Shown: positions 42 through 46,968 of the stretch, piece after piece
How the letters are laid out: each line of letters starts with the position of its first letter
How positions within the stretch are numbered: position 1 is the stretch's first letter
NCBI GenBank assembly: GCA_050084515.1
Contig: CM114271.1
Coordinates: 39,866,001 to 39,930,000 of the forward strand
Source: Blasia pusilla
Lineage: Eukaryota
DNA length: 64,000 bases
Direction of reading: 5' to 3'
Position numbers and translations under genes: made by a program
The notes under the pieces: model-generated
What the model was told of the DNA's origin: nothing
Seen by the model: the letters and a program-made list of their open reading frames with translations, nothing else
Database searches by the model: none

Positions 42-554
42 TGTAACGTCTTTTAGGATATATCGGTGAGATCTAGTAGAGCGCCTTCGTGAGTAGTGGA
101 GGACAAAATCAGTAGATTGAGGATGACGTGCTGAGGCCCCGGGAAACCTGAGAGAGCAGGTTTCCCCTTCGTTTCGGCTCATTTGGAGCCATATTGAGGA
201 ACTTACTATTTTAGGTAAGTACCATTTTGAGTATATGATCGACTTTCTATTTTTGGTAAGTGGCCCTTGACCTCCTACATCAGGTCAAGAGCCAAGGAGG
301 TGACTTGGGAGAATAGGTTATCATGGAGAGAGCTTGGGAGAGGGGAGGGTATACCTCAACGAGAGAGAGCTTGAGAGCTCATTCTCTTTTTGTTGAACCT
401 CTTCGCATGAGGTGGCGGAGCTATGGTCCCTTGCCTTGTGAGTGTAATCCAAGCCTCTCATTAGGAGAGTGGGTTTGTTTTGACATGAGAGAGAATACAC
501 ACATTTGAGAGCTATGGTGTGAGATGGTGTAGAGAGAGATTGGATCTTACTTTA
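42..554 (+). repeat. Terminal repeat A1 (about 513 bp)
   Basis: Near-identical to 12130-12645; the same ORF translation (STRESLRAHSLFVEPLRMRWRSYG...) appears in both. Confidence 0.93.
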
Positions 555-1095
555 CAAAGAGAGAATGAGAGAGTGAGAGAGCTTCATGGGGGATCTCGCT
601 GGTCATTTGCTAAATTGTTCTAACCCTAAAAACCAGCCGCCACGCCGGCAGCGGCCGTCGCCGTCATAGTCATCGTCAACGGTCTGCCATCGACGGTCAA
701 CCATCACCGTCACCATCAGCGGTCAAACGTCACCGTCAACGGTCCACCGTCCGTTGTCCACCCTTTGGTTGCCATTTCCGCCATTACGAAGTGGAGGGTC
801 TTCCACGACGTTCGTTGATTCTCTGACTTGCGTCGCCACCACGTACTTTGTTTTGGTCGCCACTGTCATCGTAGTTTCCTCATCAACCAGTGATGGCGGA
901 TGACCTCCGGTTATGGTGTTTGAGTTCTTAATTCATGTTGCTATGTTGTGATTGGTAGCCGCTCGACGACGATCGAATACCGTGCCTTGACGCCCTGTAG
1001 CCGCAACGCATCGCCGATTGCCGCACCGTCTCGATCGCGGAGCCGCACCGTCATTATTGAGCAGAGTGTGGGTTTATTGTTGATTGAGGAGGGTA

Positions 1096-1212
1096 TGCCG
1101 CCGAGTGCCGCATCCCACCATCGAGGTCCGTGCCGTTCGTAGCCGTTTCGTGCCGCCGAGTGCCGCATCCCACCATCGAGGATCGTGCCGTTCGTAACCG
1201 TTCCGTGCCGCC
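1096..1212 (+). repeat. 55-bp GC-rich tandem duplication in the retroelement leader
   Basis: tgccgccgagtgccgcatcccaccatcgagg... starts at 1096 and again at 1151. Confidence 0.9.
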
Positions 1213-1706
1213 TGCAATGTCGCACCGTTCCGCTGGAACCGCACTATCCATCAAGGAGTTTTAAGCATCATTAGTACGGGAGGAATATGACTTGATGATT
1301 GGAGGAGTTGTCTCCACGACCGAGTTGGGGTCGAGATTTGCAGTTGCTGAGGAGCGACATCGACATGTGTTCAGGTTACCCGGCCATTCTGGTCCTTTAC
1401 CCTGCACGTGTGAGGGATTCTGGGATTTGGGTAGTTTATTTGGGGATATTGGGTGTGTGGATGCTAAGAGCATCATTTATGCATATGGTTTAGGGGACAT
1501 AGACTTGTGTGGGATGTCCGGAGTTGAGGGTAGGTTGTCGATGAGATAATAGCCTGGTCGATTTGCCGCACCACGCCGCTTGTTGCCGCACGTTAGACGT
1601 CTTGGGGAGGGAGGGTGTAGATCGAGTGCCGCATGTTTGGGATGAGTGATTGAGGGATTACTCGCGAGGTTGAGAGTGATTGTGTGAGAGGGGCACGAGG
1701 GTCATC

Positions 1707-3380
1707 ACGGAGTCTGTTCGGGACTTTGAGAGGCGAGGTGGTGAACTCGAGAGTAGCTCTAGAGGTTTTACGTGGAGTGACGCGAGGTTCCGAGGGTCTC
1801 CATGTGAGGGACCACCTTGACCTCCTTCTGTGTCATCGTCAGACAAGGGGGAGGGTGTAGAGGAGTTTGTGAGCACATCGCCACACATTGTGAGTGGTCC
1901 TACCAGTTGGGCGTATGAGATGGACGACCGGGGTAGAGGACCGCGTAGGTTTTCAGATGCAGTAGGCACGATTGAGTTGCACGATTTCATAGCAGAGTTT
2001 AGGAGTTGGTACGACTCCTAGCGGGCCAGGAACTCTAGAGAGTTCAACCCGTTTACATCATGGAACGGTATGTTCTAACATTTAGAGGGGGCGCCCATGG
2101 ACGATTACCATGAGTTCTCTCAGAGATATGCACATGAGATCGAGGCGTGGAGGCTCTACTATGACCTACATTATGTGTCATGGACGGAGCCATTCCCAGA
2201 TGAGGAGGAAGACTCAAGAGAGGCTACTTCCTCTTCCACTAGTGATGTTTTAGGAGGGGTCACTCGCACGGGAGCAGTTGCACCATCTAGTCGGGTTCGT
2301 CCCAGGTTCAACCCTGTGGTTGAGTTCTTGGCTGAGTTGAGGGTGAGCTACCAGGGGGTACAGACGGAGAAGTTGCGGAGCATCCACGACTTCTAGAGCC
2401 GCCCGGGTGAGAGTTTGCGTGAGGCTTACACTCGCTTGCGCCGGTTGATCAACGTCACTTAGGGGTTGACAGAGGCTCAGGCTATCCAGTCATGGTACGC
2501 GATGCTGGACCGGACCCTGCGAACACGGGTGTGGGAGGGGGTGCTTCGTATGAACACCTCCCCTACGTTGAGAGATTTTTTTAGGACCGCCAAGAACATT
2601 GAGCGCAACATGGCGGAGGAGAGCGTAGCCACCATGGGTTTTGGGCGAGAGCAGTCACGATTGTGTGCACCACCTGTGCAGCAACGTGGACCCCGAGATA
2701 GGTCGACTGTGGCACCACGAGCTCAGGGAGGATACCGGGAGGCCATGCCACATAGACCTGCGACTTCATATGCGGCTCAGCAGCAGCCGCCTACTATTAC
2801 TTGTTGGTCATATGGTGGAGCCCATCATCAACGCGATTGCACTCGTCAGGGTTGTGGACGTGTGCCTCAGCGTGGAGGAGGAGATGTCGCTGCACCAGGA
2901 GGTTATTAGTGTGACTATTGTGAGAGGTATGGTCATACATGCGCCAAGTGTTTCAGTTTACATCCTGAGTTACGTCCGGACCGAGGGCCAGAGAGAGCAC
3001 CAGAGCGAGTAGTCGGTCCGAATGGGGCTAGAGATCTGCACCAGGTGGTCTCGTTGGGGGACGAGGAGCAAGAGTTTCCCGACAGGGTGGTGGAGCTGCC
3101 CGTGGAGGAGGTAGAGTACCACCACCTAGACGCGCCGAGGGAGACGCCGGATGTGAGGCTGGGATGGCTGCTCAAATACAGCAACTACATGAGCAGATTT
3201 CCGCTATGGCATTGAGGTTACCCGATGCCGCATCCGTGGCATCAACATCATATGGAGCAACCAGAGATATGGAGGATCCTGGTTGGGTGTGCGGGGTTTC
3301 CCAGATGGAGGTCGCCGCAGTTGTGACACATGGAGCAGCCGCTGAGTTGGATCCACAGCGAGGGGAAGCCAGAAAATAGA
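1707..3380 (+). pseudogene. Gag (capsid-like region plus two CCHC-type zinc knuckles), disrupted
   Basis: F*SRPGESLREAY retrotransposon-Gag-like motif (~2391-2430); knuckles CWSYGGAHHQRDC and CDYCERYGHTCAKC. The start ATG of copy 2 (40053) is ACG here. Several in-frame stops. Confidence 0.8.
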
Positions 3381-3849
3381 CTAGGATTCCTCAGTCTTTC
3401 ACGTTGTCCGAAGCGATGAGGACCCCATCAATGGGTCCTCATCAAAGTTCCTGGAGAGTTGGTGATGTTGTTGGTGCGCAAGCACGGAGGGCGATAGGAG
3501 AAGCGAGTGTGAAGACTCCTACTGTTGATGCTCAGGAGGGGCATGTGTCGAGCACGTTGTTGGGGGCGGCCACCATTGTGTACCGCGCTCCTTTATTTTC
3601 TGCTTCCGATGTTATGATGTTGAGGGGTACGCCCTCCGAGGCTTTTTGGCTGGCCGCTACACTATATGAGCGTGGAGTTGTAGTTCTTGCATCACGTTCA
3701 AAGGTGATTGCAAAGGAGGTAATGGACCTGCCCTTGGAGCGGATGCTCGGGCCGTCCACGTCAGATTCATGGCAGGGTGCAACTGCTAGGATGGCGGAGA
3801 TGCCCACTAGACCCACGATAGAGCATGCCATGGCTTCTCCTGGTGTTGT

Positions 3850-4300
3850 GTTGATGGATAACCAAGGAGAGGTCTTCCAGTTGGTGAGCCCTGGAGGTAG
3901 AGCTTTTAGTCCGCAGCGCGTCTTGTTGGATTCAAGAGCGCAACCCCTGATGTTGGGGAAAGCGTCATTCAGAGGATTGGGCTTGACGAGAGTTGATGTG
4001 GAGCGTTGTCCATTCCGGATACAGACATCCTTGGGTGGAGCAAGTACCACACAGTATATCACCCAACAGGAGGTTGTGGTGAGGATTCTCGGGACATCCC
4101 TGATGATGAGTTCGTAGTGCGAGCCAAGGCGATAGTGATCGTCGCAGAGTCCCACGGCGTCTTGGTTGGTGGAGCGATGTTATATCCGATGGGGTTTCCT
4201 TGGATTCCGGGAGGAGTCGAGGCCAGGATGGCGTTAGGTGATGGCGCCTTAGCTCATTACCCGTTCGATTCACAGGTGCAGTGATCGAGCAATGGTCAGG
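3850..4300 (+). pseudogene. Retropepsin-type aspartic protease
   Basis: VLLDSRAQPLMLG (copy 2 reads VLLDSGEQPLMLG) matches D-S/T-G; downstream VLVGG flap-like motif. Confidence 0.75.
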
Positions 4301-4383
4301 AGAGATGGCAACCTTAGCAGCATTTAGCAGTGCCATCACTTGGCCTAGTGGTTTGATTGAGGGACATGTCCATGCAGAGGATG

Positions 4384-7336
4384 CAAAGAATATTGTACAT
4401 CTTGCAATACGTTAAGCTTTGTACTATACACATCTGCCGCCATACTGTGGGTAAGTTGTTCTTTCTCTAGGAAAGGTTTGAAAAGGCCTTCTACATTAAA
4501 GGATGGCAGGATTACAAGACCAAGTGTAGGACTTGGTAACTCAATCCAGGGCATGCACTGTGCAAACAACTCATTCACTCTCAAGTTCACCAATAAAACA
4601 TTATGTACTTATCTATACATGAAGTCAGAATCAAATAGCAAAAGTGGTTGTATATTCCACGCAACAAGTGGACAATCAAGCAGTGAGCCGATCTGGAAAA
4701 ATTATGTATGAAACCCTTTGTACTTTGTCTCAATCCCTAGGCGAGAATCGACAAGAGACAATAGTTATAGATACAACGGCTATACCAAAAGTATCTCCCG
4801 TTTGTAGAAAGGAGTCATGTAGATGTTATGTCATGTTAGAGGTGTGCTCAAATTTCTAAACGTAATGGGCATAAGCACAATAAAAAATCATGAAGAAGCT
4901 AGACGATTATCATATGTAATGTACTTCATGAAAACATGTACAACCATTGGGAAGCATGTAAGTACACCACTTAAGTGTCCTACCCAGAGTACAACGATAA
5001 ATGTAAGTTTTTAAAGCATGGAACAGACCAGTGAAGTATTTCACAGATACCAGAAGCTATAAGGGATGAATAAATCCTTGCTATACATGATTCAAAAATT
5101 GCATATGGCAAACATTACAACTACACATCTACCTTTGCTTAGTATTAGATATCAGCTACACAAGGAAATGAATCTTAGAGAGCAAAACATGATCACTATA
5201 TTCAGACAAGTACCTGAATCTGTATGCGTACTTCAAAGAATGTTGTGTCCAACTACAGGTAAGCAACATACATTAGTGAACGTCCGAACCTATGATACAC
5301 ACCACTTTTATATATCCACTACACCCAAGAATACCGGTTTTTACTATTACACCAGTCAAATAAACTGACCTATACAACATGTTTGCCACAAGCGCTAGCC
5401 ACAAATCATACCACGTAAAATAAACTTAAGAATTATATGGGGATCTATTTTGAAAGTATTTTCGCCGCAATAAATGCCTCTACAGAGCTTGTGGTAGCAA
5501 TTTAGTATTGTGGGGCATCTCAATTTTGTGCATGTAAGGCCAATATACACAAGTCCAAAAAGTGTTTATTGATACATTTGTCAAAGGCATGAAAAGATAA
5601 GAAACTACACCATTGAATGAAGTCCATAACCTTGCAGCTTCATAAAATCCCTAAGCATGTTGATCCAAGATTGTAGTTTGTTAAAATGTTGAGGAATATC
5701 GTGACGATATAGTCACATTAAGAATTGTAAAAATTACCACTCAAACGACACTGGACTTAACCAAAACCACATGTGGTCTTTCTATAGCTCAAATCACTAG
5801 AGCACACAAATTGAAAACTTGTATTCAATTCTGAAACCTCAATACCACAGCCAACATGCATACTCCTTACATACTTATTCGTACTATGTATTGTTTTTTA
5901 GTGTGCTATCTTATCTCAAATCTCCACATACTGAAAAAATAAATAATCTAACCTATAAAACACCTTTGTGCTACCCAATCATAAAAACTATTAAACCACC
6001 ACCACTGAACTTCTTAATAATCAAACAAGACATCGAACTACAGCCATAGGCCCTTGTAGTCCCTTTGTATCTAGAATTACGGCTCAATCCACACTGAAAG
6101 TCTCTTTTTTGTCCTAAAACCTCATAACCCTAAGCAGCATCAATACTCTCGAGAATCCCATTTGAATCCCGTCTTGCTTGTTACTTTACTATTTGAATTT
6201 GATAGCTATAGGGTCACATGAGATCGGAAGTGTTGTTGTTGCAAGAAATGCTCCTATACAACTCATTGTGGGGATTCGGTATGGTGAGCTACGCCAACCT
6301 GGAGAATGAAGCAACCTAAATGCAAGCCAACATCTCTGGTTTAATACACACTTGTATCCACATAAAAAAACTATAGGAACCGCCATTGCTGAGCTACGCA
6401 TGGATGTTTGACATAATCATGCTAGCGAAGTTCAATTAGCTTGAGGAAAACTGTGGATAAGGTCTTAGGTGAAAATAAAGCAATAGAAGATAAGGAATAG
6501 TGCAAAGCTCATAAGGTACATAACCAAGAGTGATGGTGGATGGAGACAACCTAATTCTACAGTAAGTTAAATCAAACGCATAACACAAAAGGTAACTAAG
6601 ATGGAAGGTGCCTCAATTGCCACTGAGCTTGCGTTGTTCCTCGAATGCTATAAGTAATCAAAGGAGACAAAGAGGGATTGGGCTACAGCAAGCACAATTG
6701 CGGTAGTTCCAAAGCGAGAGGCATTGTTGGGGTTTAGGGTGCGGATGTCATTAGGTGTAGCAATGATAGTTGGGCATCACTTAAGTGCGTCGTAAAGCTA
6801 GGATCGGGTGCATGACGCAAAACAACTCTAAGCATGGAAGTTACCTGGTTTGCTATAGCTGTTGAAGTCGGCCGCGTACCCTAGAACTGAAAATGATGTC
6901 TATGGATCAACGCTTTGTGCACAAAAAAGCACAACCAAAGTGAAGCTCACTCTATCTAGACAATAGCGTATAGTACGTGCACATGCGTTTAACAATGTCA
7001 CAAAATTATGTTGTTGCAACGTGAGCAAACACAATGGACAATCGGCCCTTACCTTAGCACAAATTTTCTGCCCTAGTAGGAGTTTCGGTCGGGAGCTATA
7101 CTTTAATAGAGGTAGAAAAGAAAACAAGGCTAAGCCGGATCGTGCAAAGTCACTAAACCTCGAATACGCCAAGTGTGATAAGGGGTACAATGCTCTCGAG
7201 ATTTGGACACCCTCACGGGATAGTGGTTCAATTGCGGCACACACACCCGGCCGATCTTCCGACTAGTTTCGACGCAAAATGTTGCCGCCGCTTGTTGTGG
7301 GGCTCACCGAGAGCCGACAATTGGGAGATTGCATCA
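4384..7336. other. About 2.95-kb AT-rich insertion of unknown origin inside copy 1 pol
   Basis: Alignment with copy 2 breaks after ...catgcagaggat (~4383) and resumes at gcgtggagc (7337). About 125 bp of copy 2 (42445-42570) has no counterpart here. Confidence 0.8.
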
Positions 7337-7447
7337 GCGTGGAGCGAGGCGTTTGCACCGGAGCGTGAGGGGTCTGAGGAACCCAAGGTAGCAGGGAGTG
7401 CTACGATGACACCCTTGGATACCACACCCATTGTGTGGTGTACCCGG

Positions 7448-8420
7448 GAGGAGGGTATTCGAGTGTTAGATCTCTTTGGAGGGATTAGCATCGAGTTAGC
7501 TGTTGTTTTGCAGGCATGAGTGCGAGTACATCGGTATATGTATGTGGAGAGTGATGATGTTGCGAGGTGCGTCTCACTACGGCATGTGGCGCAATTACGC
7601 CTACGTTTTCCCAACTTATTATCTGCATCCGCAGTACAAGGGTACCAGAGTTCCCTACCGAGGGATATTTCGTTGTTGGGGGCGCAGGACTTAGAGCGGG
7701 TAGGGACCATTGATTTGGTCATTTTTGGTTGGCCATGTCAGGGCCAATCGAGTGCTGGATGAGGCAGCGGGTTGGCTCACACTCGGTCCAGGTTGTTTTG
7801 GGAGATGTTGAGGGTCTTACGGCAGTTACAAGAGCACCAATCTTGTTCTCCAGCCTACATTCTCGAGAATGTGCCGATCTTAGGAGACTCCAGGTCACGG
7901 GTGGTGAGGAGTGTTCATCAGGTGCGTGCCTAGAGCGGCCCAGCAGTATTCTTGGATGCGTTGAGTGTAGGTTCTAGAGCCCATCGCCGCGTCTATGGTG
8001 GACCAACTTGGTGTCCCATGCGGTGTTACAGAGGGCATATGCGAGAGTGGAGCGCCCCTCCCATTTGTTAGTGGATTCCATTCTAGATCTAGCTCATCGA
8101 TCAGAGGCAGTGAGGCACGATGATCGACTACCGTTGATTGTGGTCAACAGGGTAGGCAGGCCCCGAGCAGCCTTTCCCACGTTTGTGAGTTTTCCCGCTT
8201 CCTATGCATACAAGGAGGACGGTACTGGCTTGGTTTGGGATGACCAGGTTCAGAGGTTGATGGAGCCCAACGCCAACGAGAGAGAGCGGGCGATGGGATT
8301 TCCCCCAGGAGTGATGGCAGTCCCGTCAATATCAGAGGCATCACGATGCCATGTCTTGGGTCAAGCGATGGACCTGAACTGCTTGACATGGATCTTCAGC
8401 TTGGGAGTGGCTGAGCAACG
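7448..8420 (+). pseudogene. DNMT3-like C5 cytosine DNA methyltransferase domain within Pol (copy 1)
   Basis: Motif I IRVLDLFGG (~7454-7483); motif II YVESD; motif IV IDLVIFGWPCQG (Cys codon 7736-7738); motif VI YILENV (Glu 7865); motif VIII AHRxRLWWTNL; motif IX ERERAMGFP; motif X RCHVLGQAMD. Canonical, unpermuted order. Three in-frame stops and one frameshift. Confidence 0.92.
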
Positions 8421-8744
8421 TCGGATGAGATCGCGACAGATCACAGCGGTTGCGTTGGTGAGCCTTATGCCTACCGAGACGGTGGAGGCAGTGGCTGGGG
8501 AGGAGACCCGAGGAGATCGACACACCAGGGGAGATCAAGAGAGACACCCTTCGACTTCTTGGGATGTTTTGCAGGTATGCCAGGAGATGATAGCCACAAC
8601 ATCGAGGGTGGTTTCGGGCACTGCACATGGAGGAGATTAGAGTTTGCATTTGGCTGCATGAGAGCGGCTGAGTGTTGTTGTTTGAGATGGGGTTGCACCA
8701 TAGCAACCATCGATACCCGTGCCGGAGAGTCCTACCGTAGTCAC

Positions 8745-10170
8745 GATGGAGATTTGGGAGCCAAATATGGGCCCTAAGTTCACAAGAGGAGAGCGGCGCT
8801 GAATACATCAATTCCTCAAGAGTTATAGGAGCATCTTTGCGTTTAGCATGGAGGATTTGGGTACGCTGAAGGGACCGGGATCTGCATTGAGTTGTTGAGT
8901 GATACACCGATCTTTCGACGACCCTACAGGTACACTCATATGGAGAGGGCTATGATTCAGAGTAGGAGCCAGGACTTGGTCGGAGCAAGACTAGTGAAGA
9001 TATCGCATGGGGAGTATGCATCTACCACTGTCATGCCCACCAAGAAGGATGTGCATGGCAACTTGACGGATAGGCGGATGTGTGGGGATTACCAACCTAT
9101 CAATCGGAAGACGAAGTCTGATAGGTATGCCATGCCTAATCGCTTCTTTGATACGATTGGTCATGCAAAGGTCTTCAGTTCATTGGATTTGAGAGCCAGA
9201 TACCATCAACTGCTTATCAGATTGGAGGACAGGCAAAAGACGGCATTTTGGGGCATCGATCCTCACGGGAAGGATTGTTTATACCAGTAGCGGTTCTTAC
9301 CATTTGGGTTAAAGAACGCCCCGGCTGAGTTTCAGAGGGTCATGGATAGGATCTTGGTTGGTCTAGATTTTGCTAGGTGTTATATTGATGACATCGCAGT
9401 CTTTAGCGCCACGGTTGAGGAGCATGAGCAACAACTAGAGGAGGTGTTCCGACGATTGCAATTACATGGGCTGAAGCTACATCCAGGCAAGTGCAAGTTC
9501 TTCTAGGACCATATTGAGTATTTGGGTCATACGATATACCCAAGGGGCCTTGGTGTTCAGGAGACAAAGGTAGAGGCTATCTCACGCATTCCACGCCCTA
9601 CATATATGAGCCATGTTTGCGCATTCATGGGATTGGCGAACTTCTATCATCGATATGTCAAGGGATTCAGTTCGATTGCGAAGCCGCTGACCTTGCTGAC
9701 CAAGGTGGATCACGAGTGGCACTAAGGGGATGAGCAAGAGCGAGCATTTCAGTTGCTCAAGGACACGTTGACTTCCGCGCCCATCTTGAGGAGACCGATC
9801 AAGGGGCGTCCTTTCCAGTTGCACACAGATTGGAGCATGTTGGGGCTTGGAGTGGTGCTCACCCAACATGATGATGAGGGTAGAGAGTTTGTGGTGGCTT
9901 ATGCCGGCCGCTGGAACAACGCTGCAGAGGCAAAGTACAGCTCGTATGAAAGTGAGTGCTTGGCTGCGGTGTGGGCTGTCGCGCATTTCAGGTGTTACTT
10001 ATTCGGCAATCCCTTTACCATCATCACTGATCATCAACCACTGAAGTGGTTGATGGAGTGGGACAAGCTTACAGGGAAGCTTGCGAGATGGGCTCTGTTG
10101 TTGCAGGAGTATGATTTGCAAGTGGTACATAGACCTCGGACGCTCAACCAGGATGCAGATGGGTTGAGTC
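8745..10170 (+). pseudogene. Reverse transcriptase and RNase H (copy 1)
   Basis: PIFRRPYR, RMCGDYQPIN, FSSLDLRARYHQ, PFGLKNAPAEFQR, CYIDD (~9378-9392); RNase H motifs LHTDWS, YSSYESECLA, IITDHQPL, NQDADGLSR. Confidence 0.95.
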
Positions 10171-10559
10171 GTAACCCATGCCCGAGTCAGCGAGATGCGA
10201 TTGGAGCTCGATGGCATGGAGAGAGTGATCACAAGTCGGTGCCAGGAGGGCACGCGTCAGCCTATTTAGGCATGTTGGCTATGGAGAGCCAGAGTGTGGA
10301 GACTTCAATGGCGAGGTCTAGTGGAGAGTCCTTGGATCCCGAGGCCAGTGAGGAGACGATAAGTGGCCGAGATATTCATGATGATGGAGTAGTCTTGGAG
10401 TACCTTCGTATTGGCAGCGTTGCGAGCACCGTGGATGCTAGAGAGCGGGATCAGATCCTACAGCGGGCCAGACGGTTCCGTTGGGAGGGGACACATGTTT
10501 TGAGGGTTTGGAAGGATGGTAGAGTCCGCGTAGTGACGCATCCTTCGCAGAGAGCACGA

Positions 10560-11620
10560 CTAGTGCAGCATGCCTACGAAGAGTTGGGTCACTTTGGGAT
10601 GAAGCGGACGTACAGCTTGCTCCAGATTCAGTATTGGTGGCGAGGCATGCAGACTGACCTTCAGCAGTTTGTTGCCAAGTGCATGGTGTGTGATCAGGTC
10701 CGAGCATTGTTCAATGCTCCGACTCCACAGGTCCATCCATTACCGATCATGGGCTTAGGGTATAGATGGAGTTTGGATTTTGGAGGACCTTTTCCTTTTA
10801 CGGAGCGTTACAGTCGTTATGTGTTGGTGATGGTCGAGCACTTCTCAAAGTTTATCAAGTTGGTTGCATTGTCTGTCAAAGCGAGTGAGGGAGTAGCTTA
10901 TGCCTTCCTTGACAGAGTGTTGAGTCATTATGGCGCACTGGCTAAGGTGTTGACAGACTAGGGTACGGAATTTCGCGGTGAGTTCCAGGCCTTGTGTGAT
11001 CAGGCGCTAATCGACCATCGCACGACTTCGCGAGATCATCTTGAGGTGGATGGATTAGCGGAGAGAGTTGTGCAGATGGTGAAGAGGGGTTTACACAAGT
11101 ATGGCTTGTAGAGAGGTCACCTAGGAGATTGGGACCTCCAGTTGCCCTGGTTGGCGATGGGATACAGATTCAGCAGGCAGGCATCCTTAGCGTCTTTTTC
11201 ACCGTACTTTCTACTTTGTGGCCGACAGCCAGATTTACCTACAGCCATTCGTCGAGATGCTGGTGAGGTGCTGGACCTTGATGACCCAGATGTATGGATG
11301 TGAGCATGTTCTCAGAGGGCTTAGTTGTTTTGGAGAGTGATGCCCATGGCGTTCGAGAACTTGGCGATTGCGCAACATCGGGATACGTTGAGGTATGCGA
11401 CTATTCGGGGGTGGTGGTTATCGACCAAGTATCCGGAGGTTTCATCAGGGAGACTATGTCTACTTGCAGCAGATGGCACCGACGACGTTGGATGTGACTG
11501 CAGAGCGCACTATCATGAGAGTTCGTGACGTTTTGCCATCCGGTGTTCTCTTGTTGGAAGGACGCGATGGTATGGTATGGAAGGACCATGTGCGTAATTG
11601 TGCGTAATGTCACCTTCCTA
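10560..11620 (+). pseudogene. DDE (rve) integrase with H2C2 zinc-binding region and GPY/F-like tail (copy 1)
   Basis: HAYEELGHFG...CMVC; WSLDFGGP; VLVMVEHFSK; VLTD*GTEF; DGLAERVVQMVKRGL; RRFHQGDYVYL. Confidence 0.93.
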
Positions 11621-11672
11621 AAATTTATGGTACATTAGTCCAAGCTTAGCAGTAGTTCCTGCAGGCTTGCGT

Positions 11673-11813
11673 TGTATGTTGTGTGGTTCTGCCCGTGGTG
11701 CGGCCACGATGCTAGTCTGTGATGGATGTTCGAGAGGTTGGCATATGGCATGTCTGACGCCACCTCTCACTAGGATTCCTTGGGGACGATGGATGTGTCC
11801 CACATGTACATAG
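11673..11813 (+). pseudogene. C-terminal PHD finger of the polyprotein (copy 1)
   Basis: CMLCGSARGAATMLVCDGCSRGWHMACLTPPLTRIPWGRWMCPTCT* has a C4-H-C3 pattern with WxCPxC. Confidence 0.93.
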
Positions 11814-11999
11814 ACGAGATACTAGGTGGGTTTCAATTTCAACTTTTTCTTTGACATGGATGACAGGAAGGCGACTAACGATGGGGCCAAATGAGCACCC
11901 GGCCTTCTTGCTCTTAGTGTCCGAGAGATGTATGTCATGGTAGGTAGGGATGGATGGCTATCTGGAGTTAGAGGGACCTAGCCACCAGCTCGGGAGGCG

Positions 12000-12127
12000 A
12001 TTGGAGATATTTTAGTACTTCTTGTCTCATTGTTTGGATGCCATGAGTTATCATGGGATCGTGCGTGTTTGTGTGTATGTTTAGTTACAGCGATGCATGT
12101 TGTGTAGCGATGTGTATACGCACGACA
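12000..12127 (+). repeat. Terminal repeat B1 (128 bp)
   Basis: attggagatattttagtac...cacgaca; matches 12646-12773, 46969-47096 and 47288-47415. Confidence 0.92.
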
Positions 12128-12129
12128 GC

Positions 12130-12645
12130 TGTCACATTTTTTTAGGATAGATCGGTGAGATCTAGTAGAGCGCCTTCGTGAGTAGTGGAGGACACGCTCA
12201 GTAGATCGAGGATGACGTGCTGAGGCCCTCAGGAAACCTGAGAGAGCAGGTTTCCCCTTCGTTTCGGCTCATTTGGAGCCATATTGAGGAACTTACTATT
12301 TTAGGTAAGTACCATTTTGAGTATATGATCGACTTTCTATTTTTGGTAAGTGGCCCTTGACCTCCTACATCAGGTCAAGAGCCAAGGAGGTGACTTGGGA
12401 GAATAGGTTATCATGGAGAGAGCTTCGGAGAGGGGAGGGGTATACCTCAACAAGAGAGAGCTTGAGAGCTCATTCTCTTTTTGTTGAACCTCTTCGCATG
12501 AGGTGGCGGAGCTATGGTCCCTTGCCTTGTGAGTGTAATCCAAGCCTCTCATTAGGAGAGTGGGTTTGTTTTGACATGAGAGAGAATGCACACATTTGAG
12601 AGCTATGGTGTGAGATGGTGTAGAGAGAGATTGGATCTTACTTTA
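12130..12645 (+). repeat. Terminal repeat A2
   Basis: Starts TGTCAC; direct repeat of 42-554. Confidence 0.93.
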
Positions 12646-12773
12646 ATTGGAGATATTTTAGTACTTCTTGTCTCGTTGTTTGGATGCCATGAGTTAGCAT
12701 GGGATCGTGCGTATTTGTGTGTATGTTCAGTGACAGCGATGTATGTTGTGTAGCGATGTGTATGTGCACGACA
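12646..12773 (+). repeat. Terminal repeat B2 (128 bp), right end of the element
   Basis: Direct repeat of 12000-12127; ends in CA next to the TSD. Confidence 0.92.
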
Positions 12774-30718: not shown

Positions 30719-33700
30719 ATGCCAGACTTCGATCCTGGGAGGGGGGAAGGCCCGATGAGAAGACCGGTGCGAGGGCAGGGAGAGGGCCCCCGTTATGGCC
30801 CGGGAGGATTGCCTTCGGAGGGGCTGGATCCGGCACCAAAGCCATGGCCATGGGCACCATGGTTGGCGGCAGTAATGTGCCTGGGCTTTCTGGCGCTGCA
30901 ATTGTGGCCGGCGGCGAATTTGCGGCATCGCGCTGATCCCGAGCGCACCACGCGTGCGATCACGGCAGACGATGCCGAGGATGTCGCCAAGCTGGAGGCG
31001 CTGCGTCGTGAATGGGATCCTTCATTTGTCGAGGTCAAAGCCATTTCATCTCCTGTCGCACCCGTGGATTCGATGTTGAAAGGAGCAACAGGCGGTGGTA
31101 CCATTTCTGAACTGCTTCGACGGAGGAGAGATGAAGTACAAGTTCACATATTTTTGTCGACAGATGAGAGCGACCTTAGGCCTCTTGTTGTTGTCATTAA
31201 TTCGACCATTTGCAACTCTAGGTAATTAGACTCTTAGCTAATCCTCCTCGAATTTATTTAGGGAATTTTGTTCTTTTACTCGGCTGCAATGAAGTGATTC
31301 AACTACTCGCGAAGAGAAGCAACCACTGCACGGTTGCCAGCTTGCTGCTGAGCCGTAGTGAGGCGTCAGGTGTCTTATGGAAAGGCGAGGGAAGTCGGAC
31401 GCTCCGCAATGCCGACCGCTGAATTGGCTAAGATGAATTTGAGGTCTTGCTTTGGTATGCTGACGGAGTAGGCAGATGCATTCGCCTCGTTTTCGCGTGA
31501 CCTTTCTTCCCGTCCTAGTTAGCAATTGCCTCCGTTATCGCGTCAGATTTCGACGCTCTTTTCGTAAACAAGCATATCTCGACACTGGTATCATAGAGCT
31601 GTTGCGCACTGTACTGATGTTTACGCTCAAGTACCTCGGGAAAATATATTCGTGGATGACTTCGTCTCGCATGGTTGTTCGCATGTAGAATTGACGAGTT
31701 CCTCATTTGGCAATACAGAAATCCAGAGCGACTTGTATTTCACTTGATCATTCCTGCAAGTGAGAGCAACATTGAGTTTTACAAGCTGAAGACTTTCTTT
31801 CCATCCATTTCTATAGATGTGTTCAGGTACTTTTTACTCAACCCCCACCTGAAAAGCCTGACTGATTGCAGGAGAACTGGAAAAATAGCTCACGCGGTAA
31901 AGGTTGCTTTGTGAAGAGTCGAAAGGTAGTAAATTATATATATTCCTTGCTCAAACTGAGCCAATTAACAGATGTTACCAAAGATTTGTAAAAACTGCAG
32001 AAAATGACGTGGAGCAGGCAAGACCATTGCAGTACTCTAATCTCATATGTCCCTGATCTGCTTCTTCTCTCAAACTTCGTAGAACATTACTCCTGCTTAT
32101 TCATCCGCTGCTTTAGAAATTCGCCATGGCTATCAACGGAGCTGCTCCTGTTGATTGTTTCGATTAAGGCCATCAAGCCAGGTAAAGCTCAGTGAACCAA
32201 CCTTAGTGTAAATGGCACTGGACTAGTTAGTATATAGCTACGTCCTCATGCCATGGCCAAGTTTGGATAAGCTCTCTGAAAATGCGAGACTACAAGTGCC
32301 ATGGGAACAGATGAAAAACTTGAGAGATCACAAGAGCGCAATTGCAGACTGTAGAAAAATGTTTGGAATGATCAGTCTCAATTTATTGGAGAATTCGGAA
32401 ATAATTTTGGGAATTCAACACAACGTTAGCTTTTGGTTGCACTTGTTGGCAGTTCCATGCTGCCCTGCCTAAGGTCAATTATTGTTTCTGTGACCAGTAA
32501 GTGGAGAACCTTGGCAATTTAAGTGCGAACAACCAAGATGGTACAAGTGAAAATTGTTGAAGGATCATTTCACTTGTTCAGTAAAATTTTCTAGACTGAA
32601 CATTTTGTCCTAGTTGCAGTGAGAATGTTTTGAGTTTTTGGTGACTGTAACCTAACTGCTTTTGTTTTACAGGGGAGTCTTTGATTTTGAAGGGCTGTCC
32701 AAGCATATAACATACAGGAACAACAGTCATACACGGCAGGAGCTCATTAGTCCTTACAATTTTCTCCCCTTCTACCTTCCTCAGCTATATGAAGACATTG
32801 AAATGATGATCTACCTGGACTCCGATGTGGTGGTAAAGGTATACCTTCTAAACAACCATTGGTCAATTTTTTTGTGGACTCGCCCTAGATTGTGTCTTCG
32901 CCTAGCTTGTCAGGACAAGCCTTGGAGAACTGACTTGTGCTGTCATCTGAGTTTGTCCCTTGCCACTTTTGAAGACCTTTCTGGTGGTGTTACTTAGCTG
33001 CAATTGCAGAATGCTTTGAATGTACGTGGGAGGTTGCTATCTTCCATCTTCCAAATCGTTCTCAGAATGTGCCCTATTTTCCTTCTATTAGAGTCTTTTT
33101 TTATTTATTTGTGAAAGACTGAAGTGTTCAATGGTGTGAAGCTGGTACTAAATTCCCTCCAATTTGTGTGATGTAGTACAGAAGTGTGAAGTTTTCATAT
33201 GCCTCATCTTTTAGTTTTCCCTCGAAAATTGTTCAGGGTCCGATAGAGGAGCTCTACTTCAAGGATCTGAAAGGATATCCAGTGGCAGCTGTTGAAGACT
33301 GCTCTCAACAGTTTAAAATATATTTCGATTTTGAGCAATTAAATTCCATACAAGCAAGAGAGGGTGATTCAAAAGGATGGTTACCTAAAGAGCCCTTCAA
33401 TGCTGAGGCATGCATATTCAACAGAGGCGTTTTGTTGATCAATGCCACTCGTTGGAAAGAACTGAAAATAACAGATGCCATCGAATGGTGGATGAACGAG
33501 TACCACAAAGCTGAGAAGCCCCTTTACAGGTATGTATTTGTAACTCTGCAAACGCGAGAAACAGATGGTGTCAAATTATCTGGAAAAAAAAGACATTCTA
33601 CATACATACTTCAATGGGATTGTGGAGACCTTTGATGCATGTGCTTGCACAGTCGGTGGGCCTTCTTTACTTACAGCAGAGAACCTTGAAATCTAAACTT

Positions 33701-37000: not shown

Positions 37001-40000
37001 CCGATGAGTAAAATTTCCTTGAGTATGTTTCTTTCTAAAAAATAGGTTCGCTATCTATACTATTATGGGAGAGTGCCTTGTCGCTGCCCAAACACTCGAG
37101 CATCTGACACGTGACATTTTGGCCCAAGAAAAATGCACCATTTCCAAACGGTCTGATATGTGAGTTCTGCGATTCTAACCGTTCGATGGGATTTTTGGTA
37201 GCCGTTGGATGGGGATCCTTAGGGTTTTGGTACTTCGGCCGTGAAAAAGGTTTTTTTTTTTAATCATTCAAATTTTCTGTCCTTGAAGAGAGTTAGATCC
37301 GCTCCTTGAGGGAGATCCGTCGATTTAATGGCCCTCTTGCTATTCAAAGAGGCGTCATGGCTTACAAGACCTTACATAGTAGAAGTATTTATGTTTTACA
37401 AAAAAATTTGAAACCTCCAAACTCACTGTGCGCACTTCAGCCTCTGCTCAAGTAACATTAGGTCTCATTTGAAAGCTCAGGTCACATCGGATCTTTACTC
37501 ATTCAATGAAATGTTACAAGCAATTAAGGCTTAAGCTATAGTTGAGCTTATGAGATTTATTCACGTAGATTTTATTTACACATGCAATAGCTATTGTTGA
37601 GCTTATAAGCTTTATTGATGCATATTTCATTTACACATGCAACAAAATGATACCAGCCAAGCTTAAGTTATTGCTGAGCTTTTGAGCTTTAACTCAGTGT
37701 GTGTCTTTGAGCTCTACTGTGGGCCCTTCGAGATCTTCTCCTAATGTTGCCGTTGATGTGTTCCTGCATTTCAGATACTTGGCAGAGTGATTGGGAGCTC
37801 CTACTTCCGAGTCGGCTCTTTTAGTAGTTCCAACTCCCGATTCGGCTCATTCGGCAGCTCCCATTGCTCTTTCGGTTCCTTTTGCCACCCCCATTGCTGG
37901 TTCATCTCCTTTAGCAACTTCTCCCACACAGGTGCAAAATAGATCGAAGGTACAAAAACAACGAGGATGGCAACAAGAATAACAACAAAGAAGCCACCCA
38001 AGGAAAGGGAAAGAGTGTAACCTAGATGATCTCATCGAAAAAGCTGGAGTAAAGTAAGCTAATTAGGAGCCATTGGAGAGTTCAAAATGGTATCCCGGAT
38101 CTCAAGAGAAGTTGCGCTTTGGTATTAGTCCTCCTTGGGGGGGAAGACTCACTAGGAATCGGATGGGTTCATAAGGGCGTCGGGAAGAACCTTCAGCAAG
38201 GTCTCAGCAGTGACTTCACGGCTGTACAAATGTCAAAAAACCTCAACGTAAACCCGCAACACATCCCAAGCTTCTTGCACATGGCCATGAACGCTACACC
38301 CTTTCATCTCGATAATCAGCGAGGTAGAAGCATGCTATCCGCGGCTTAACGCAAAGCATTGAGATAGCAAAAAATTGGCAACTCGACCAACATCAGTTGC
38401 TTAATTAGAAATGCCGATAAATGAAACACATGACCGATAAGAAACATGATTAAACTCCCCGCATAGGAAGCATTCAATGAATTAGGGCTAAAGTTCTAAT
38501 CGACTGTATAGGAAGCGGAAAGAAAAGGGCAAGGGATAAGCCGGACGCTCTAATCTCCATGAAATACAAACAGGGAGAGGTAATGAGCAGCAAAAAAATA
38601 GGGTGCGAATGGGCGGAACGTTGCACAAGCTTGGCACATGAAGATCTAAATGCAAATATAAAAATCCACCTTACTCTAAGTGCAAAGGAGAGGTCAAAAG
38701 GGACAAGCAATCATTCCACTGGATGAGAGAGTCCGAGAAGAGTCGAGGGAGGAGCAAAGAGGATAATCTAATCATTCCTAGGATGAGATTCCTTGAGCAC
38801 TCAAGTGGAGTAAACTCAGACTCAATGTGGTTGTAGTAGCATTGAGTGGAAAAATCTCCATCGGGTACAACTTGTCACGATTGTTAGGATAGATCGAAAA
38901 GATCTAGTAGAACGCCTTCGAAAATACTGGAGGACAGCCTCAAGAGGTCAAGGATGACGTGTTGAGGCTGCAGGTAACCTCCAAGAGCAGGTTTTCCCTT
39001 CGTTCCCGCTGATTTGGAGCCATATTTAGGAACTTACTATTTCGGGTAAGTGGGGGACCGTGTTCCCCGCTTCATGGCTCATGGGAGTGCTCACCGGAGC
39101 AAGAGACGTGCGAGTTTGTTGTTTTGCTTTGCTGATTTTTTGTACGGGACAGTGGCACGCGGAAGCGTTGGCCAATTTTTGATAGGAATTGAGTATAGGG
39201 ACGGATTGCTCCATTCCGGTGCTCTCGAGAGCATCATGTAGCTTGCTGATTTGTGTTCTTACAGCTTTTACATTTTCGTTGGGAGAAATCAGCTTAGAAG
39301 CGCTGCCAAATTTTGTGTAGGAGAAAGAGACATTGGGTTTTACGACAATACCTGTCAATTTTTACTAGAATAATTGATTCAAAATTTTTTTCAACGCCTT
39401 CGTAGATCGTGAAGCTGTGCACGTTGTGCAAGAGAGAGTGTGCGATTTGGAGTTGCGAGAAAAATGTTATGGTCAATCTTGCAAAACTTCCACTGCTAGG
39501 AAATTTTTAGGGTTAAAATGTTCAAACCCTAAACTAGCCGACGCGGCGGCCGTTGCCGTCATAGTCACCGTCAACAGTCCGCCCTTGATGGTCAACCATC
39601 ACCGTCAATGGTCCATCGTCACCGTCAACGGTCAAAGTACGACTTGATGACTGGAGGAGTTGTCTTCACGACCGAGTTGGGATCGAGATTTGTAATTTCC
39701 GAGGAGCGACATCGACATTATTTTCAAGTTACCTATTTCGGTCTCTTACCCTGCACGTGTGGGGGATTTTTGGGTATTGGGAAGTTATTTGGGATATTGG
39801 GTTCTGTGTTGATGCTGAGAGCATCGACGATGTATGGGTTTAGGGGTCATAAACTTGTGTGGGATGTCCAGAGTTGAGGATGGTTTGTCGATGGGACGAT
39901 TGATCAGTTGATTTGTTGGACCGCGCCGCTTGTTACCATACAACACAAGTCCCAGTGAGAGATTGTAGATTGAGTGCCACATGTTTAGTTTAAGTGATTG

Positions 40001-40052
40001 AGGGATAACTTACGAGATTGAGAGTGATCGTGTGAGAGGGGCACGAACCATC

Positions 40053-42450
40053 ATGGCCTCCTTTCGGGATTTTGAAAGGCGAGGGAGTGGACCTGAGAGT
40101 AGCTCTGGAGGGTTTACCCCCAGTGGTGAGAGGTTTCAAGGGTCTCTACGTGAGAGACCACCTCGATCCCCTTCTGTGTCGTCTTCACACGAGGAGGAGC
40201 GTGTAGATCAGTGTGTTGGTGATCCACCGTACGTATTGAGTGGTCCTACCAGTTGGGCGTACAAGATGGACGACATGGTAGGTTTTCGGATGCTCTAGGC
40301 AAGATAGAGCTTCACGACTTCATTGCAGAGTTTAGGAGTTGATGTGACTCACTATGGGCTAGGAACTTTAGAGAGTTCAACCCGTTTACAACATGGAACG
40401 GTATATTCCAGCATTTAGAGGGGGCGCCCATGGACAATTACCATGAGTTCTCCCATAGATATGCCCAAGAGATTGAGGCATGGCGACTCTACTATAACCC
40501 ACACTATGTGTCATGGACGAAGCCGTTCCCAGATGAGGAGAAGGAGTCAAGACATGCTACTTCCTCTTCCATCAGTGATGTTTTAGGAGGGATAACTCGC
40601 ACTGGAGCAGTTGCACGGTCCAGTCGAGTTCATCCCAAGTTCCACCCCGTGGTTGAGTTCCTCACTAAGTTGAGGGTGAGCTACCAAGGGGTTCATAGGG
40701 AGAAGTTGCCGAGCATCCACGACTTCTAGAGGCGCCCGGCTCTCGAAGAGTTTGCGTGAGGCTTATACTCGCTTGCGCCGGTTGATCAACGTCACTCAGT
40801 GGGTGACAGAGGCTGATGCTATCCAGTCAAGGTAGGCGATGTTGGATCGGACTCAAGGGATACGGGTGCAAGAGGGAGTACTTCTTATGAATACCTCATC
40901 TACGTTGAGAGATTTTTTCAGGACCTCCGAGAACATTGAGCACAACATGGCAGAGGAGAGCGTAGCCACCATGGGTCCTGGGCGAGAGCAGTCACGATTG
41001 CCTTCACCACCAGTGCAGCACCGTGGAGCCCATCATCAGCGGGATTGCACTCGTCATGATCATGGACGTGTGCCTCAGCATGGAGGAGGAGATGGTGCTG
41101 CACCAGGAGATTATCTGTGTGACTATTGTTACAGGTATGGTCACACACGCGCCAGATGTTTCAGTTTACACCCTGAGTTATGTTTGGACGGAGGGCGAGA
41201 GAGGGCACCAGAGCAAGTAGCAAGTCCGGGTGGTCCTGCACCAGCTGGTCCCGTTGGGGAACGGCTGGAGTTTCCTGACAGGGTGGTGGATTTGCCCATG
41301 GAGGAGGTAGAGTCCCACCACGTAGACGCGTCAAGGGAGACATTGAGCGTGATGTTGGGATCGGTGCTCATATACAGCGGCTACAGAAGCAGATCGCCGT
41401 TATGGCATTGAGGTTACTCAATGCCGGATCCGTGGCATTGACATCATATGGAGCAGCCTGAGATATGGAGGATCATGGTTGGATGTGCGGGGTTGCCCAG
41501 ATGGAGGCCTCCGTAGTTGTAACGAGTGGAGCAGCCACAGAGTTGGATTCACAGCGAGGGGAAGCCAAGAAACAGAAGAGGCTTTCTGAGTCTTTCACGT
41601 TGTCCGAGACGATGAGGACCCCATCCATGGGTCTTGTTCAGAGTTTTGGGAGAGTTGGTGATGTTATTAGTGTGCATGCACGGAGGGCAATGGGAGAAAC
41701 AAGTGTGACGACTCCTATTGCTGATGCTCAAGAGGAGCATGTGTCGAGTACGATGTTGGGGGTAGCCATGATGGTGTACCGTGCTTCACTTTTTTATGAT
41801 TCAGATGTTATGACATTAGGAGGTACCCACGCCGAGGTGTTCCGGTTGGCTGCTACGCTATGTGAGCGTGGCGTTGGAATTCCTGCATCACGTTCAGAGA
41901 TGATTGCAGACGAGGTGATGGACCTGCCCTTAGAGTGGATGCTCAGGCCGTCCACATCAGATTCATGGCAGGCAATGGCTGCTTGGATGGCGGAGATGCC
42001 CGCTAGACCCGCGATTGAGCTTGCCATGGCTTCTCCTAGTGTTTTGTTGTTGGATAACCGGGGAGAGGTCTTCCAATTGGTGAGTCCCGGAGGTAGAGCT
42101 TTTAGTCGCAGTGCGTCTTGTTGGATTCAGGAGAGCAACCTCTGATGTTGGGGAAAGTGTCATTCAGAGGAATGGGTTTGACGAGAGCCGATGTGGAGCG
42201 TTGTCCATTCTTGGTTGGTGGAGCAGTGATATATACGATGGGGTTTCCCCTGGCTTACTAGGAGGATTTTGCGTCCTACAAACCAGGATGGAAGTCAGGT
42301 GATGGGCGCCTTAGCTCATTACCTGTTCGATTCACACGTGCTGTGATCAAGTGACGGCCAAGAGAGATGGCGACCTTAGGAGCTTTAAGCAGTGCCATCA
42401 CTTGGCCTAGTGATTTGATTGAGGGAAATGTCCATGCACAGGATACTCCC
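40053..42450 (+). pseudogene. Gag and aspartic protease (copy 2)
   Basis: ATG at 40053; homologous to 1707-4383; knuckle CDYCYRYGHTRARC; VLLDSGEQP. Confidence 0.8.
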
Positions 42451-42679
42451 GTTCCTGACATTTCTATGGAGAGAAGTGGCATAGTAGCCACATCAATCCG
42501 TGGAGGAGAGGTGATGCTTTGGGGCTCGATTGAGGAGGTTCGACGCTTAGCCATTGAGCATGTGCAGACCGCGTGGAGCAAGACATTTGCACTAGAGTGT
42601 GACAGGTCAAAGAAACCCCATGTAGGTAGGAGTACTGCTATGACCCCTTGACACCACCCCGATTGTGGGGTGCATCCTA

Positions 42680-46857: not shown

Positions 46858-46968
46858 TGTAGGTAGTTCTATATTCTGACTTGTATCTGTGACATCGATG
46901 ACAAGAAGGCGACTAAGGATAGATCGCTATCTGAAGTTAGAGGGACCTAATCACCAGCTAGGCGGGCG

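Follow-up and report, generated by a model that had tools for sequence, protein, structure and literature searches.

A Ty3/Gypsy retrotransposon family with a DNMT3-like cytosine methyltransferase domain in the land plant Blasia pusilla

Introduction

Among described retrotransposons that carry a cytosine methyltransferase (MTase), the closest to the element treated here is KnitGypsy-Dnmt3 of Klebsormidium nitens, whose published description gives an intronless, unpermuted, DNMT3-related domain in the Pol open reading frame (ORF) of a Gypsy element, purifying selection (Ka/Ks < 0.2), key catalytic residues that are kept and, in the legend of Fig. 4c, a DIRS-like repeat arrangement combined with Gypsy-type domains (PMC5890265). 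The same source reports that the enzymes of DIRS elements from Symbiodinium (SymbioDIRS-Dnmt3) carry out de novo CG methylation in yeast, and documents recurrent captures of DNMT domains by transposable elements (de Mendoza et al., PMC5890265). Other texts speak of transposon-borne DNMT3 'in streptophytes and dinoflagellates' (PMC12344493) and, in a 2026 preprint, of 'streptophytes (Gypsy-DNMT3)' (bioRxiv 10.64898/2026.05.21.726589). Here we analyse a stretch of 64,000 nucleotides from the land plant Blasia pusilla (GenBank assembly GCA_050084515.1, contig CM114271.1, positions 39,866,001 to 39,930,000, forward strand; the whole stretch is referred to as the window), which contains two dead insertions of one Ty3/Gypsy family, copy 1 and copy 2, each with the remains of a DNMT3-like domain.

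The family's intact plan is A - gag(CCHC) - protease (PR) - DNMT3-like MTase - UAG - reverse transcriptase (RT) - RNase H (RH) - DDE integrase (IN) - PHD - B - A - B, where A and B are terminal repeats. An earlier note on this DNA, made from its letters, had recognised a Ty3/Gypsy element, and the Pfam domains, ends and duplications agree: the family has the order PR-RT-RH-IN, a YIDD motif, a DDE integrase, TGT..ACA ends and 4-bp duplications. The explanation that we favour as a whole, and hold to be likely, is that the window contains dead copies of a high-copy Gypsy-DNMT3 family with an ORF1-UAG-ORF2 plan and possible self-methylation.

Compared by published description and not by sequence, every testable feature of KnitGypsy-Dnmt3 is present in the window family. 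Both have an unpermuted DNMT3-related domain in the Gypsy coding region with its catalytic residues kept, both show purifying selection (Ka/Ks < 0.2 there, 0.18-0.28 here), and both combine A-coding-B-A-B repeats, as in DIRS elements, with Gypsy-type domains. The window family differs in its land-plant host and in being far more abundant than the 'fewer copies' given for K. nitens, whilst its conserved stop after the DNMT domain, its PHD finger and its 4-bp duplications go unmentioned in the excerpted description of that element (PMC5890265). SymbioDIRS-Dnmt3 likewise has a retrotransposon-borne DNMT3-type domain in a polyprotein and split direct repeats, but according to the same source it is a DIRS element with a tyrosine recombinase, whereas members of the window family encode a DDE integrase, end in TG..CA and are flanked by target duplications. 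The window family is therefore, by its likeness to the description of KnitGypsy-Dnmt3, of the Gypsy-DNMT3 kind, which is already known and is now found in a land plant. Our analysis adds land-plant hosts that include a genetic model, a stop codon that would place the enzyme in ORF1, and a PHD finger held in common with a large algal sister group.

The methyltransferase domain

The cytosine MTase motifs named in the earlier note were all located on the + strand. In copy 1 these are LDLFGG (7466-7483), GWPCQ (7727-7741), ILENV (7859-7873), GSRAHR/RLWWTNL (7975-8010), ERERAMG (8278-8298) and VLGQAMD (8353-8373), so that motifs I, IV, VI, VIII, IX and X follow one another along the strand in this order; copy 2 has LDLFRG (42698-42715), ILENV (43003-43017), LWCTNL (43133-43150), ERERAMG (43419-43439) and VLGQAMD (43494-43514). 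PF00145, which had been proposed as a check on the domain, has a gathering cut-off of 22 bits. The unjoined ORF pieces of copy 1 lie under it (14.6 and 18.4 bits, with no match for the C-terminal piece), whilst reading the three stops as X brings the N-terminal half of copy 1 to 46.6 bits (E 4e-12); intact relatives score 32-46 bits. A C-terminal piece of 220 amino acids (aa), searched against 1.84 billion representatives, matched 672 proteins at E<=1e-3, 296 at E<=1e-10 and 12 at E<=1e-30, with a best E of 1.8e-59. These matches identify the domain as a genuine C5 cytosine MTase, and a chance match is excluded.

A profile of 18 family members, searched against all PDB sequences, ranked DNMT3A first (E 1.8e-21, 79.8 bits) and DNMT3C (8.1e-20) and DNMT3B (6.6e-19) directly behind it; tobacco DRM (1.8e-11), M.HhaI (1.8e-9), Arabidopsis DRM2 (1.6e-8) and DNMT2 (2.4e-5) came next, and neither DNMT1 nor CMT was among the 57 PDB matches of this profile at E<=1. 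One relative used as a single query gave an identical ranking, and its alignment to DNMT3A was colinear. We also used an AlphaFold (AF2) model of an intact relative (P0158), which shares 59% identity with the window C-terminal half and was modelled with a mean pLDDT of 80 and a pTM of 0.78, its tail being disordered from residue 328. The Foldseek matches listed for this model in the PDB, as far as rank 48, were all DNMT3A/3B/3C (best E 2e-19, TM 0.79-0.81 by target length). Profile ranking and modelled fold thus uphold the earlier assignment of the domain as DNMT3-like, and the motif order along the strand, together with the colinear DNMT3A alignment, upholds the statement that it is unpermuted. 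In DRM enzymes, the motif order is permuted. The host enzymes DNMT3A/3B/3C (PDB 2qrv, 6w89, 6u8p, 8tci) are the best sequence and fold matches and share the motif order and the signatures of motifs I, VIII, IX and X; the family's domain is ~20% identical to their catalytic domains, has more sequence between motifs VIII and IX, lacks PWWP and ADD, and is fused to retroelement proteins. An ESM Atlas look-up with the DNMT sequence returned only clusters of phage and streptophyte methylases.

Both copies of the domain are decayed. Three in-frame stops (7517-7519, 7760-7762 and 7931-7933) interrupt that of copy 1, and a one-base frameshift at ~7987-7989 splits its motif VIII. Copy 2 does have the same domain at the same position, as had been claimed, but with at least four frame changes and with 72 bp gone, including motif IV with the catalytic Cys. 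Comparison of ten relatives gives 38 invariant residues, of which 36 are kept in copy 1 and 24 in copy 2.

Distribution of the family

The earlier note had regarded the domain as a feature of the family, and its relatives bear this out. In the first protein search all 24 matches carried the domain, 12 of them from Marchantia polymorpha, one from Calypogeia fissa, two from Sphagnum and nine unnamed. The DNMT probe hit 267 of 269 fetched proteins; 36 of the 267 are arranged PR-DNMT(-RT...) like the window copies, 122 (the group of P0054 and P0180-P0269) have the order RT-RH-DNMT-IN(-PHD), and 109 show DNMT alone. The order of the window is found in a single ORF of 2188 aa (P0047: gag-CCHC-PR-DNMT-RT-RH-IN), and a protein of the zygnematophyte alga Closterium (P0127) reads PR-DNMT, whilst the named members of the second order are from the chlorophytes Haematococcus lacustris and Chlamydomonas eustigma. 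In metagenomes, a relative is encoded in 146 of 465 matched stretches. Judged by these proteins, the DNMT domain is no isolated capture but a family trait, seen in liverworts, mosses and a zygnematophyte alga.

The claim that the domain lies between protease and RT is correct for the family, in which PR and DNMT are adjacent; in copy 1, however, a private 2.9-kb insert splits the two apart (Table 1). The algal Gypsy type with the order RT-RH-DNMT-IN-PHD, known to us from H. lacustris, C. eustigma and metagenomes, resembles the window family in its homologous DNMT (30-39% identity, same invariant motifs), in its Gypsy core and in its unusual C-terminal PHD finger. It differs in that its DNMT stands between RNase H and integrase within one ORF, and falls on the other side of the DNMT tree described below. 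Three metagenome contigs of 38-62 kb (L070, L072 and L080) gave weak matches of 32-35% identity, covering DNMT residues 1-140 only; these may be cellular methyltransferase genes and not retroelements.

The full-text literature (subscription journals were outside its scope) yielded no paper describing the algal RH-DNMT-IN-PHD type, and none describing Gypsy-DNMT elements in liverworts, mosses or any land plant; nor was anything on transposon-borne DNMTs found in PMC11982613 or PMC9033089. To this extent the remark in the earlier note, whose author was aware of no characterised land-plant family, holds good, but relatives from Marchantia, Calypogeia and Sphagnum are already in public databases as unnamed gene models, and the Gypsy-DNMT3 kind as such was, by the descriptions cited above, already known.

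A conserved stop between DNMT and RT

Two ORFs in the same frame, with one stop between them, make up the coding region of the least decayed relatives. In L050, for example, a TAG separates ORF1 (976-5082; 1369 aa, gag-PR-DNMT) from ORF2 (5086-8226; 1047 aa, RT-RH-IN-PHD), and the same two-ORF arrangement is found in L048, L032 and L004. The end of DNMT and the beginning of RT are both visible in 46 loci, 39 of which have a stop followed by CA[AG]YYN at the homologous place, a proportion that overstates independence, since only a few metagenomes contributed loci and one family accounts for most of them; in 15 loci no other stop lies between DNMT and RT. Gene models agree with this boundary, in that five from Marchantia and the one from Calypogeia end at the conserved stop. 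On these reading frames, the DNMT domain closes ORF1 (gag-PR-DNMT) at its C-terminal end, ahead of a conserved stop, and is not simply inside Pol. The earlier placement of the enzyme within Pol is correct insofar as the domain lies in the Gypsy coding region before RT, and has to be amended as regards the ORF to which it belongs. Similarly, the two copy 2 ORFs at 43371 and 43866, which had been taken to point to one polyprotein, are both in frame 3, but stops at 43650 and 43848 lie between them.

In tobamoviruses, UAG followed by CARYYA constitutes the type I readthrough signal (PMC5382211), and the Gag-Pol protein of murine leukaemia virus (MuLV) is made by readthrough of an in-frame UAG (PMC5009743). 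As these systems are presented in the two sources, the window family resembles both in having an in-frame UAG between an upstream structural ORF and a polymerase ORF, and resembles the tobamoviruses in having a hexamer that fits CARYYA in copy 1 (TAG CAACCA) and in four loci (CAACCA, CAATCA or CAGTTA in L032, L048, L049 and L050). It differs in that its pre-stop ORF also carries a protease and a methyltransferase, and in that readthrough is here predicted from sequence.

The best-surviving alternative, which we nevertheless judge to be rather improbable, is that the stop is an ordinary ORF boundary and that ORF2 is expressed from spliced or subgenomic RNA, by reinitiation or by internal initiation. 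Several details speak for an ordinary boundary: the hexamer is CAACCC in 33 of the 39 loci and so departs from CARYYA at the sixth base (CAACCT and CAACTC occur in one further locus each), nine of the 39 stops are TAA and the other 30 TAG, and the Marchantia gene model P0172 joins DNMT to RT by 'splicing' out the stop-bearing linker. The lineage of P0047 has no stop at all. On the other hand, ORF2 is always in the same frame and begins right at the stop, and the stop and the next five bases are conserved while the 20 codons upstream of it are wholly different between lineages. In addition, the first Met of ORF2 in L050 is residue 117, downstream of conserved RT sequence, and among the RNA-read joints listed none crosses the stop. 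We therefore prefer readthrough as the reading of this stop.

Constraint, copy number and transcription

Among sequences that are only 30-45% identical, the Cys of PCQ, the ENV triplet, the R-W-N of motif VIII, the ERE of motif IX and the Arg and Gly of motif X are invariant or nearly so, as are the glycines of motif I across the family. Nei-Gojobori Ka/Ks between copy 1 and copy 2 (bootstrap ranges in brackets) was 0.18 (0.11-0.29) for the N-terminal half of DNMT, 0.28 (0.18-0.48) for its C-terminal half and 0.28 (0.21-0.35) for RT-RH-IN, with 0.36 for gag, 0.61 for the protease region and 0.58 for the linker behind DNMT. The copies diverged under purifying selection on DNMT that was as strong as on RT-RH-IN, a comparison which is indicative only, as it comes from a single pair of decayed copies. 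A test of selection on the domain, which the earlier note had suggested, thus came out in its favour for this pair.

Host RNA sequencing was analysed as raw reads from three runs of one study. Reads on the family stretch were present in all three runs (2341-2539 per run), 2171-2326 of them per run at 90-95% identity and only one or two per run at least 99% identical to copy 1, and the source of this RNA is therefore other copies, not copy 1. Depth in the DNMT bins was 20-42 with the first mate on the - strand vs. 0.1-2.7 on the + strand, a bias that indicates sense RNA given the usual stranded libraries. At the first in-frame stop of copy 1, the reads without this lesion were 27 of 29, 18 of 18 and 33 of 33 in the three runs, and at the frameshift 28 of 34, 18 of 18 and 25 of 30. 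The host produces sense transcripts from relatives of the two window copies. In a low-coverage DNA run of the same organism, 116,723 contig pieces fell on 9.2 kb, from which it follows that the family is highly repeated. RNA and DNA reads both cross the family's PR-DNMT and DNMT-RT borders.

Several results weigh against the account of a high-copy family that methylates its own DNA. Neither window copy can encode the enzyme, and the near absence of reads matching copy 1 closely has been noted above. An open frame through the entire DNMT match was found in only ~4 of 29 loci examined, most metagenome relatives being dead. No intact copy of the host's own family was among the sequences compared, which came from the window and from protein and metagenome databases. 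Placement in the DNMT3 clade comes from the PDB ranking and the modelled fold, and not from the tree. No CpG signal of special methylation decay was seen, as CpG observed/expected is 0.70-0.82 in the copies vs. 0.61-0.71 in the flanks and the copies are thus not more depleted than their flanks. Finally, the isolated DNMT domain of KnitGypsy-Dnmt3 produced no methylation in yeast, which its authors call inconclusive, as human DNMT3B failed as well (PMC5890265). The yeast result, along with the decay of both window copies and of most related loci, is also what would speak for DNMT as a non-methylating passenger, whether a pseudo-enzyme, a DNA-binding module or a hitch-hiking relic. We consider such a passenger unlikely, given the near-invariance of the PCQ Cys, ENV, motifs VIII and IX and the motif I glycines at 30-45% identity, a DNMT Ka/Ks that equals that of RT-RH-IN, and the inconclusive standing of the yeast assay itself; a functional MTase remains our preferred reading.

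Terminal repeats and integration

The terminal repeats of copy 1 are not ordinary long terminal repeats but form the arrangement A-internal-B-A-B, with B1 directly before A2 and B2 directly after it. The same arrangement, with a truncated A2, is present in copy 2, the full layout recurs in two unrelated metagenome relatives (L037 and L043), and the B pair alone is found at the expected spacing in L009 and L052. The outer ends read TGT...CACGACA and are of the TG..CA type, and they are flanked by 4-bp duplications (CATA/CATA in L037, AAGG/AAGG in L043, AACT/AACT in copy 2 and CGTT/CATT in copy 1), which are perfect in three of the four elements and have one mismatch in copy 1. Because of these ends and duplications, insertion by a DDE integrase is well supported. 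A DIRS element was considered and is ruled out by the rve and Integrase_H2C2 domains and by the target duplications; only the repeat layout is DIRS-like.

The inner joint between B1 and A2 consists of the right end (..CACGACA), two bases (GC or TC) and the left end (TGTCA..), at 12110-12145 of the window, ~14606 of L037 and ~10350 of L043, and looks like an end-to-end junction that was retained inside the element. Neither a primer-binding site nor a polypurine tract could be assigned from the sequence behind A1, beyond which no further search was made.

Origin of the domain

Our FastTree analysis of the domain comprised 96 rows; domains of <270 aa had been dropped (leaving 146 of the 267), and 45 of 96 algal-type rows were drawn randomly. 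All 27 PR-DNMT rows fall on one side of the resulting tree (support 93) and 43 of the 45 algal-type rows on the other, whilst two long-branched algal-type rows stand unresolved beside the PR-DNMT group. The window copy belongs to a 13-row clade (support 100) with Marchantia and Calypogeia, and its top identity is 67% over 305 columns, to Calypogeia. The nearest relatives of the element are those of liverworts. As the tree has no outgroup, the number of acquisitions is not countable from it.

It would be possible for the family to have acquired its DNMT3 domain independently of KnitGypsy-Dnmt3, in a separate capture within the bryophyte or streptophyte lineage, although we give this little credence. 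No K. nitens protein was among the matches of our word-limited protein searches, one of which was restricted to 1860-5000 aa and had 2 matches only; the domain is evidently mobile, sitting between RNase H and integrase in the large algal group; and the record of recurrent captures (PMC5890265) would allow for another. Set against this is the rare combination of A-internal-B-A-B repeats with Gypsy domains, which is identical to that given in the Fig. 4c legend of the same source and occurs in full in both window copies, L037 and L043, with L009 and L052 contributing the B pair, as well as the position of a streptophyte alga, Closterium, within the same PR-DNMT group of the tree. We thus continue to link the family with KnitGypsy-Dnmt3.

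That the domain is a host DNMT3 pseudogene, some other element nested by chance, or a chimeric assembly can be dismissed as extremely improbable, for although copy 1 does hold an unrelated nested segment just upstream (Table 1), the domain has the same position and flanks in two separate insertions with different duplications, unbroken PR-DNMT(-RT) ORFs exist in many relatives from several plant lineages, and RNA and DNA reads span both of its borders. The shared position in two insertions and the ORFs in relatives are our grounds for rejecting a host DNMT3 pseudogene or one-off capture.

Other features of the window

The coordinates of both copies are collected in Table 1.

Table 1 Features of the two Gypsy-DNMT3 copies in the Blasia pusilla window.
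Feature	Position	Strand	Basis
Copy 1, whole Ty3/Gypsy element	42-12773	+	Pfam, repeat and end alignments
Copy 1 repeat A1, 5' terminal repeat, first letters TGTAAC	42-555	+	97.8% identity to A2 over 506 bp; termini aligned
Copy 1 gag region, CCHC zinc knuckle at 2910-2951	1935-2972	+	tblastn to Marchantia P0163, 45% identity; CX2CX4HX4C
Copy 1 protease region, in three frames; active-site triplet DSR at 3929-3937	3155-4382	+	tblastn to P0163, P0172, P0159
Copy 1 private AT-rich, non-repeated 2.9-kb segment	4383-7294		missing from copy 2
Copy 1 DNMT3-like C5-MTase domain, motifs I-X, pseudogene	7403-8420	+	PF00145, tblastn frames
Copy 1 conserved in-frame stop, TAG + CAACCA, in the DNMT-RT interval	8701-8709	+	matches UAG-CARYYA
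Copy 1 RT (YIDD 9381-9392) and RNase H, with in-frame stops	8856-10112	+	RVT_1 61.9 bits, RT_RNaseH 121.3 bits; tblastn to P0172
Copy 1 integrase, H2C2 zinc finger and DDE core	10542-11303	+	Integrase_H2C2 54.9 bits; rve 21.9 bits, under cut-off 32.6
Copy 1 C-terminal PHD finger, C4HC3 pattern	11673-11807	+	PF00628 45.6 bits, E 7e-12
Copy 1 repeat B1, end CACGACA + GC, abuts A2	12000-12129	+	93.75% identity to B2 over 128 bp
Copy 1 repeat A2	12130-12645	+	alignment to A1
Copy 1 repeat B2, 3' end ...CACGACA; flanks CGTT / CATT	12646-12773	+	repeat and end alignment
Copy 2, same family, older, A..B-A-B layout, truncated A2, AACT/AACT duplication	38873-47418	+	75-89% identity to copy 1 by segment
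Copy 2 DNMT domain, lacking motif IV and with repeated frame changes	42644-43565	+	tblastn, residue count
Copy 2 homologue of the conserved stop, TAG + AAACCA; RT ORF begins directly behind	43848-43856	+	ORF and stop alignment
Copy 2 PHD finger, cut short	46708-46833	+	ORF list, motif pattern

The private segment of copy 1 has 39% GC and stands in place of ~65 bp of family sequence; within the window it has no repeat elsewhere, and neither a target duplication nor a long ORF was found. Bins 4949-7097 recruited zero reads in all four runs (three RNA, one DNA), and at 4382 RNA reads continue with sequence unlike the window. The active-site triplet of retroelement proteases is normally D-S/T-G, and the D-S-R triplet of copy 1 is one more lesion of that copy. 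Tandem duplications are present in the copy 1 leader (within 1096-1212; 62 bp, 93.5% identity) and downstream of copy 2 (within 48285-48500; 82 bp, 85% identity). A host catalase exon lies beside copy 2 on the - strand (50630-51448; PF00199 E 2.7e-114, 272 aa open, CpG observed/expected 0.30), and an open frame at 33177-33635 on the + strand matches glycosyltransferase family 8 (PF01501, E 2.5e-12) and is probably the exon of a host gene.

Possible role and significance

As we envisage it, ORF1 (gag-PR-DNMT) would be translated up to the conserved UAG, and a minority of ribosomes would pass this CARYYA-type stop and add RT-RH-IN-PHD, like MuLV Gag-Pol, so that the methyltransferase would be produced in Gag amounts and not only with Pol. 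Gag would carry both products into the particle, PR would free the DNMT, and the DNMT would there meet double-stranded complementary DNA (cDNA) and methylate either the cDNA or the fresh insertion. The earlier note had suggested packaging of the enzyme and methylation of new cDNA, which we likewise infer. As to the role of the enzyme, our first but tentative choice is that it adds de novo C5 methylation to new DNA of its own element, be it cDNA, pre-integration complex or fresh insertion, an idea proposed by de Mendoza et al. Another catalytic role, or none, comes second and is a serious contender, whilst methylation of chromatin around the target site is predicted with less conviction still.

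The best PDB matches of the PHD finger are CHD4, PHF12, KAT6A, KDM5A/B, DPF3, ATXR5, PHF21A and AIRE, which we take to be mostly readers of unmethylated H3K4. For this reason the finger would be expected to steer the integrase to H3K4-unmethylated chromatin, in a manner comparable to the chromodomains that steer chromoviruses.

A wider reading, which we offer as speculative and somewhat doubtful, is that a Gypsy element with DNMT3 and an H3K4me0-type PHD finger represents an old green-plant lineage, with RT-RH-DNMT-IN-PHD in chlorophytes and gag-PR-DNMT, UAG, RT-RH-IN-PHD in streptophytes. This lineage would have survived the move to land and would be abundant and transcribed in living bryophytes, including Marchantia, and its streptophyte branch would make the enzyme in Gag amounts, from ORF1, and polymerase and integrase via a tobamovirus-like leaky stop. 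If this were true, bryophyte methylomes would be shaped in part by a de novo methyltransferase of transposon origin that has so far been overlooked, and replication of the elements would follow an unusual split-repeat route despite their DDE integrase.

Cytosine methylation is the main means by which plants silence transposons, and a transposon with its own de novo methyltransferase reverses the usual roles. To our knowledge, such elements have so far been documented in dinoflagellates and one charophyte alga; their presence in Marchantia, Calypogeia and Sphagnum makes the question of what benefit the methylation confers approachable in a tractable plant model. The conserved stop leads to a prediction of dosage, in which the enzyme would be made with Gag and the polymerase by readthrough only, and the PHD finger to a predicted chromatin preference in integration. 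Bryophyte DNMT3-like gene models may, furthermore, be transposon ORF1s and not host genes.

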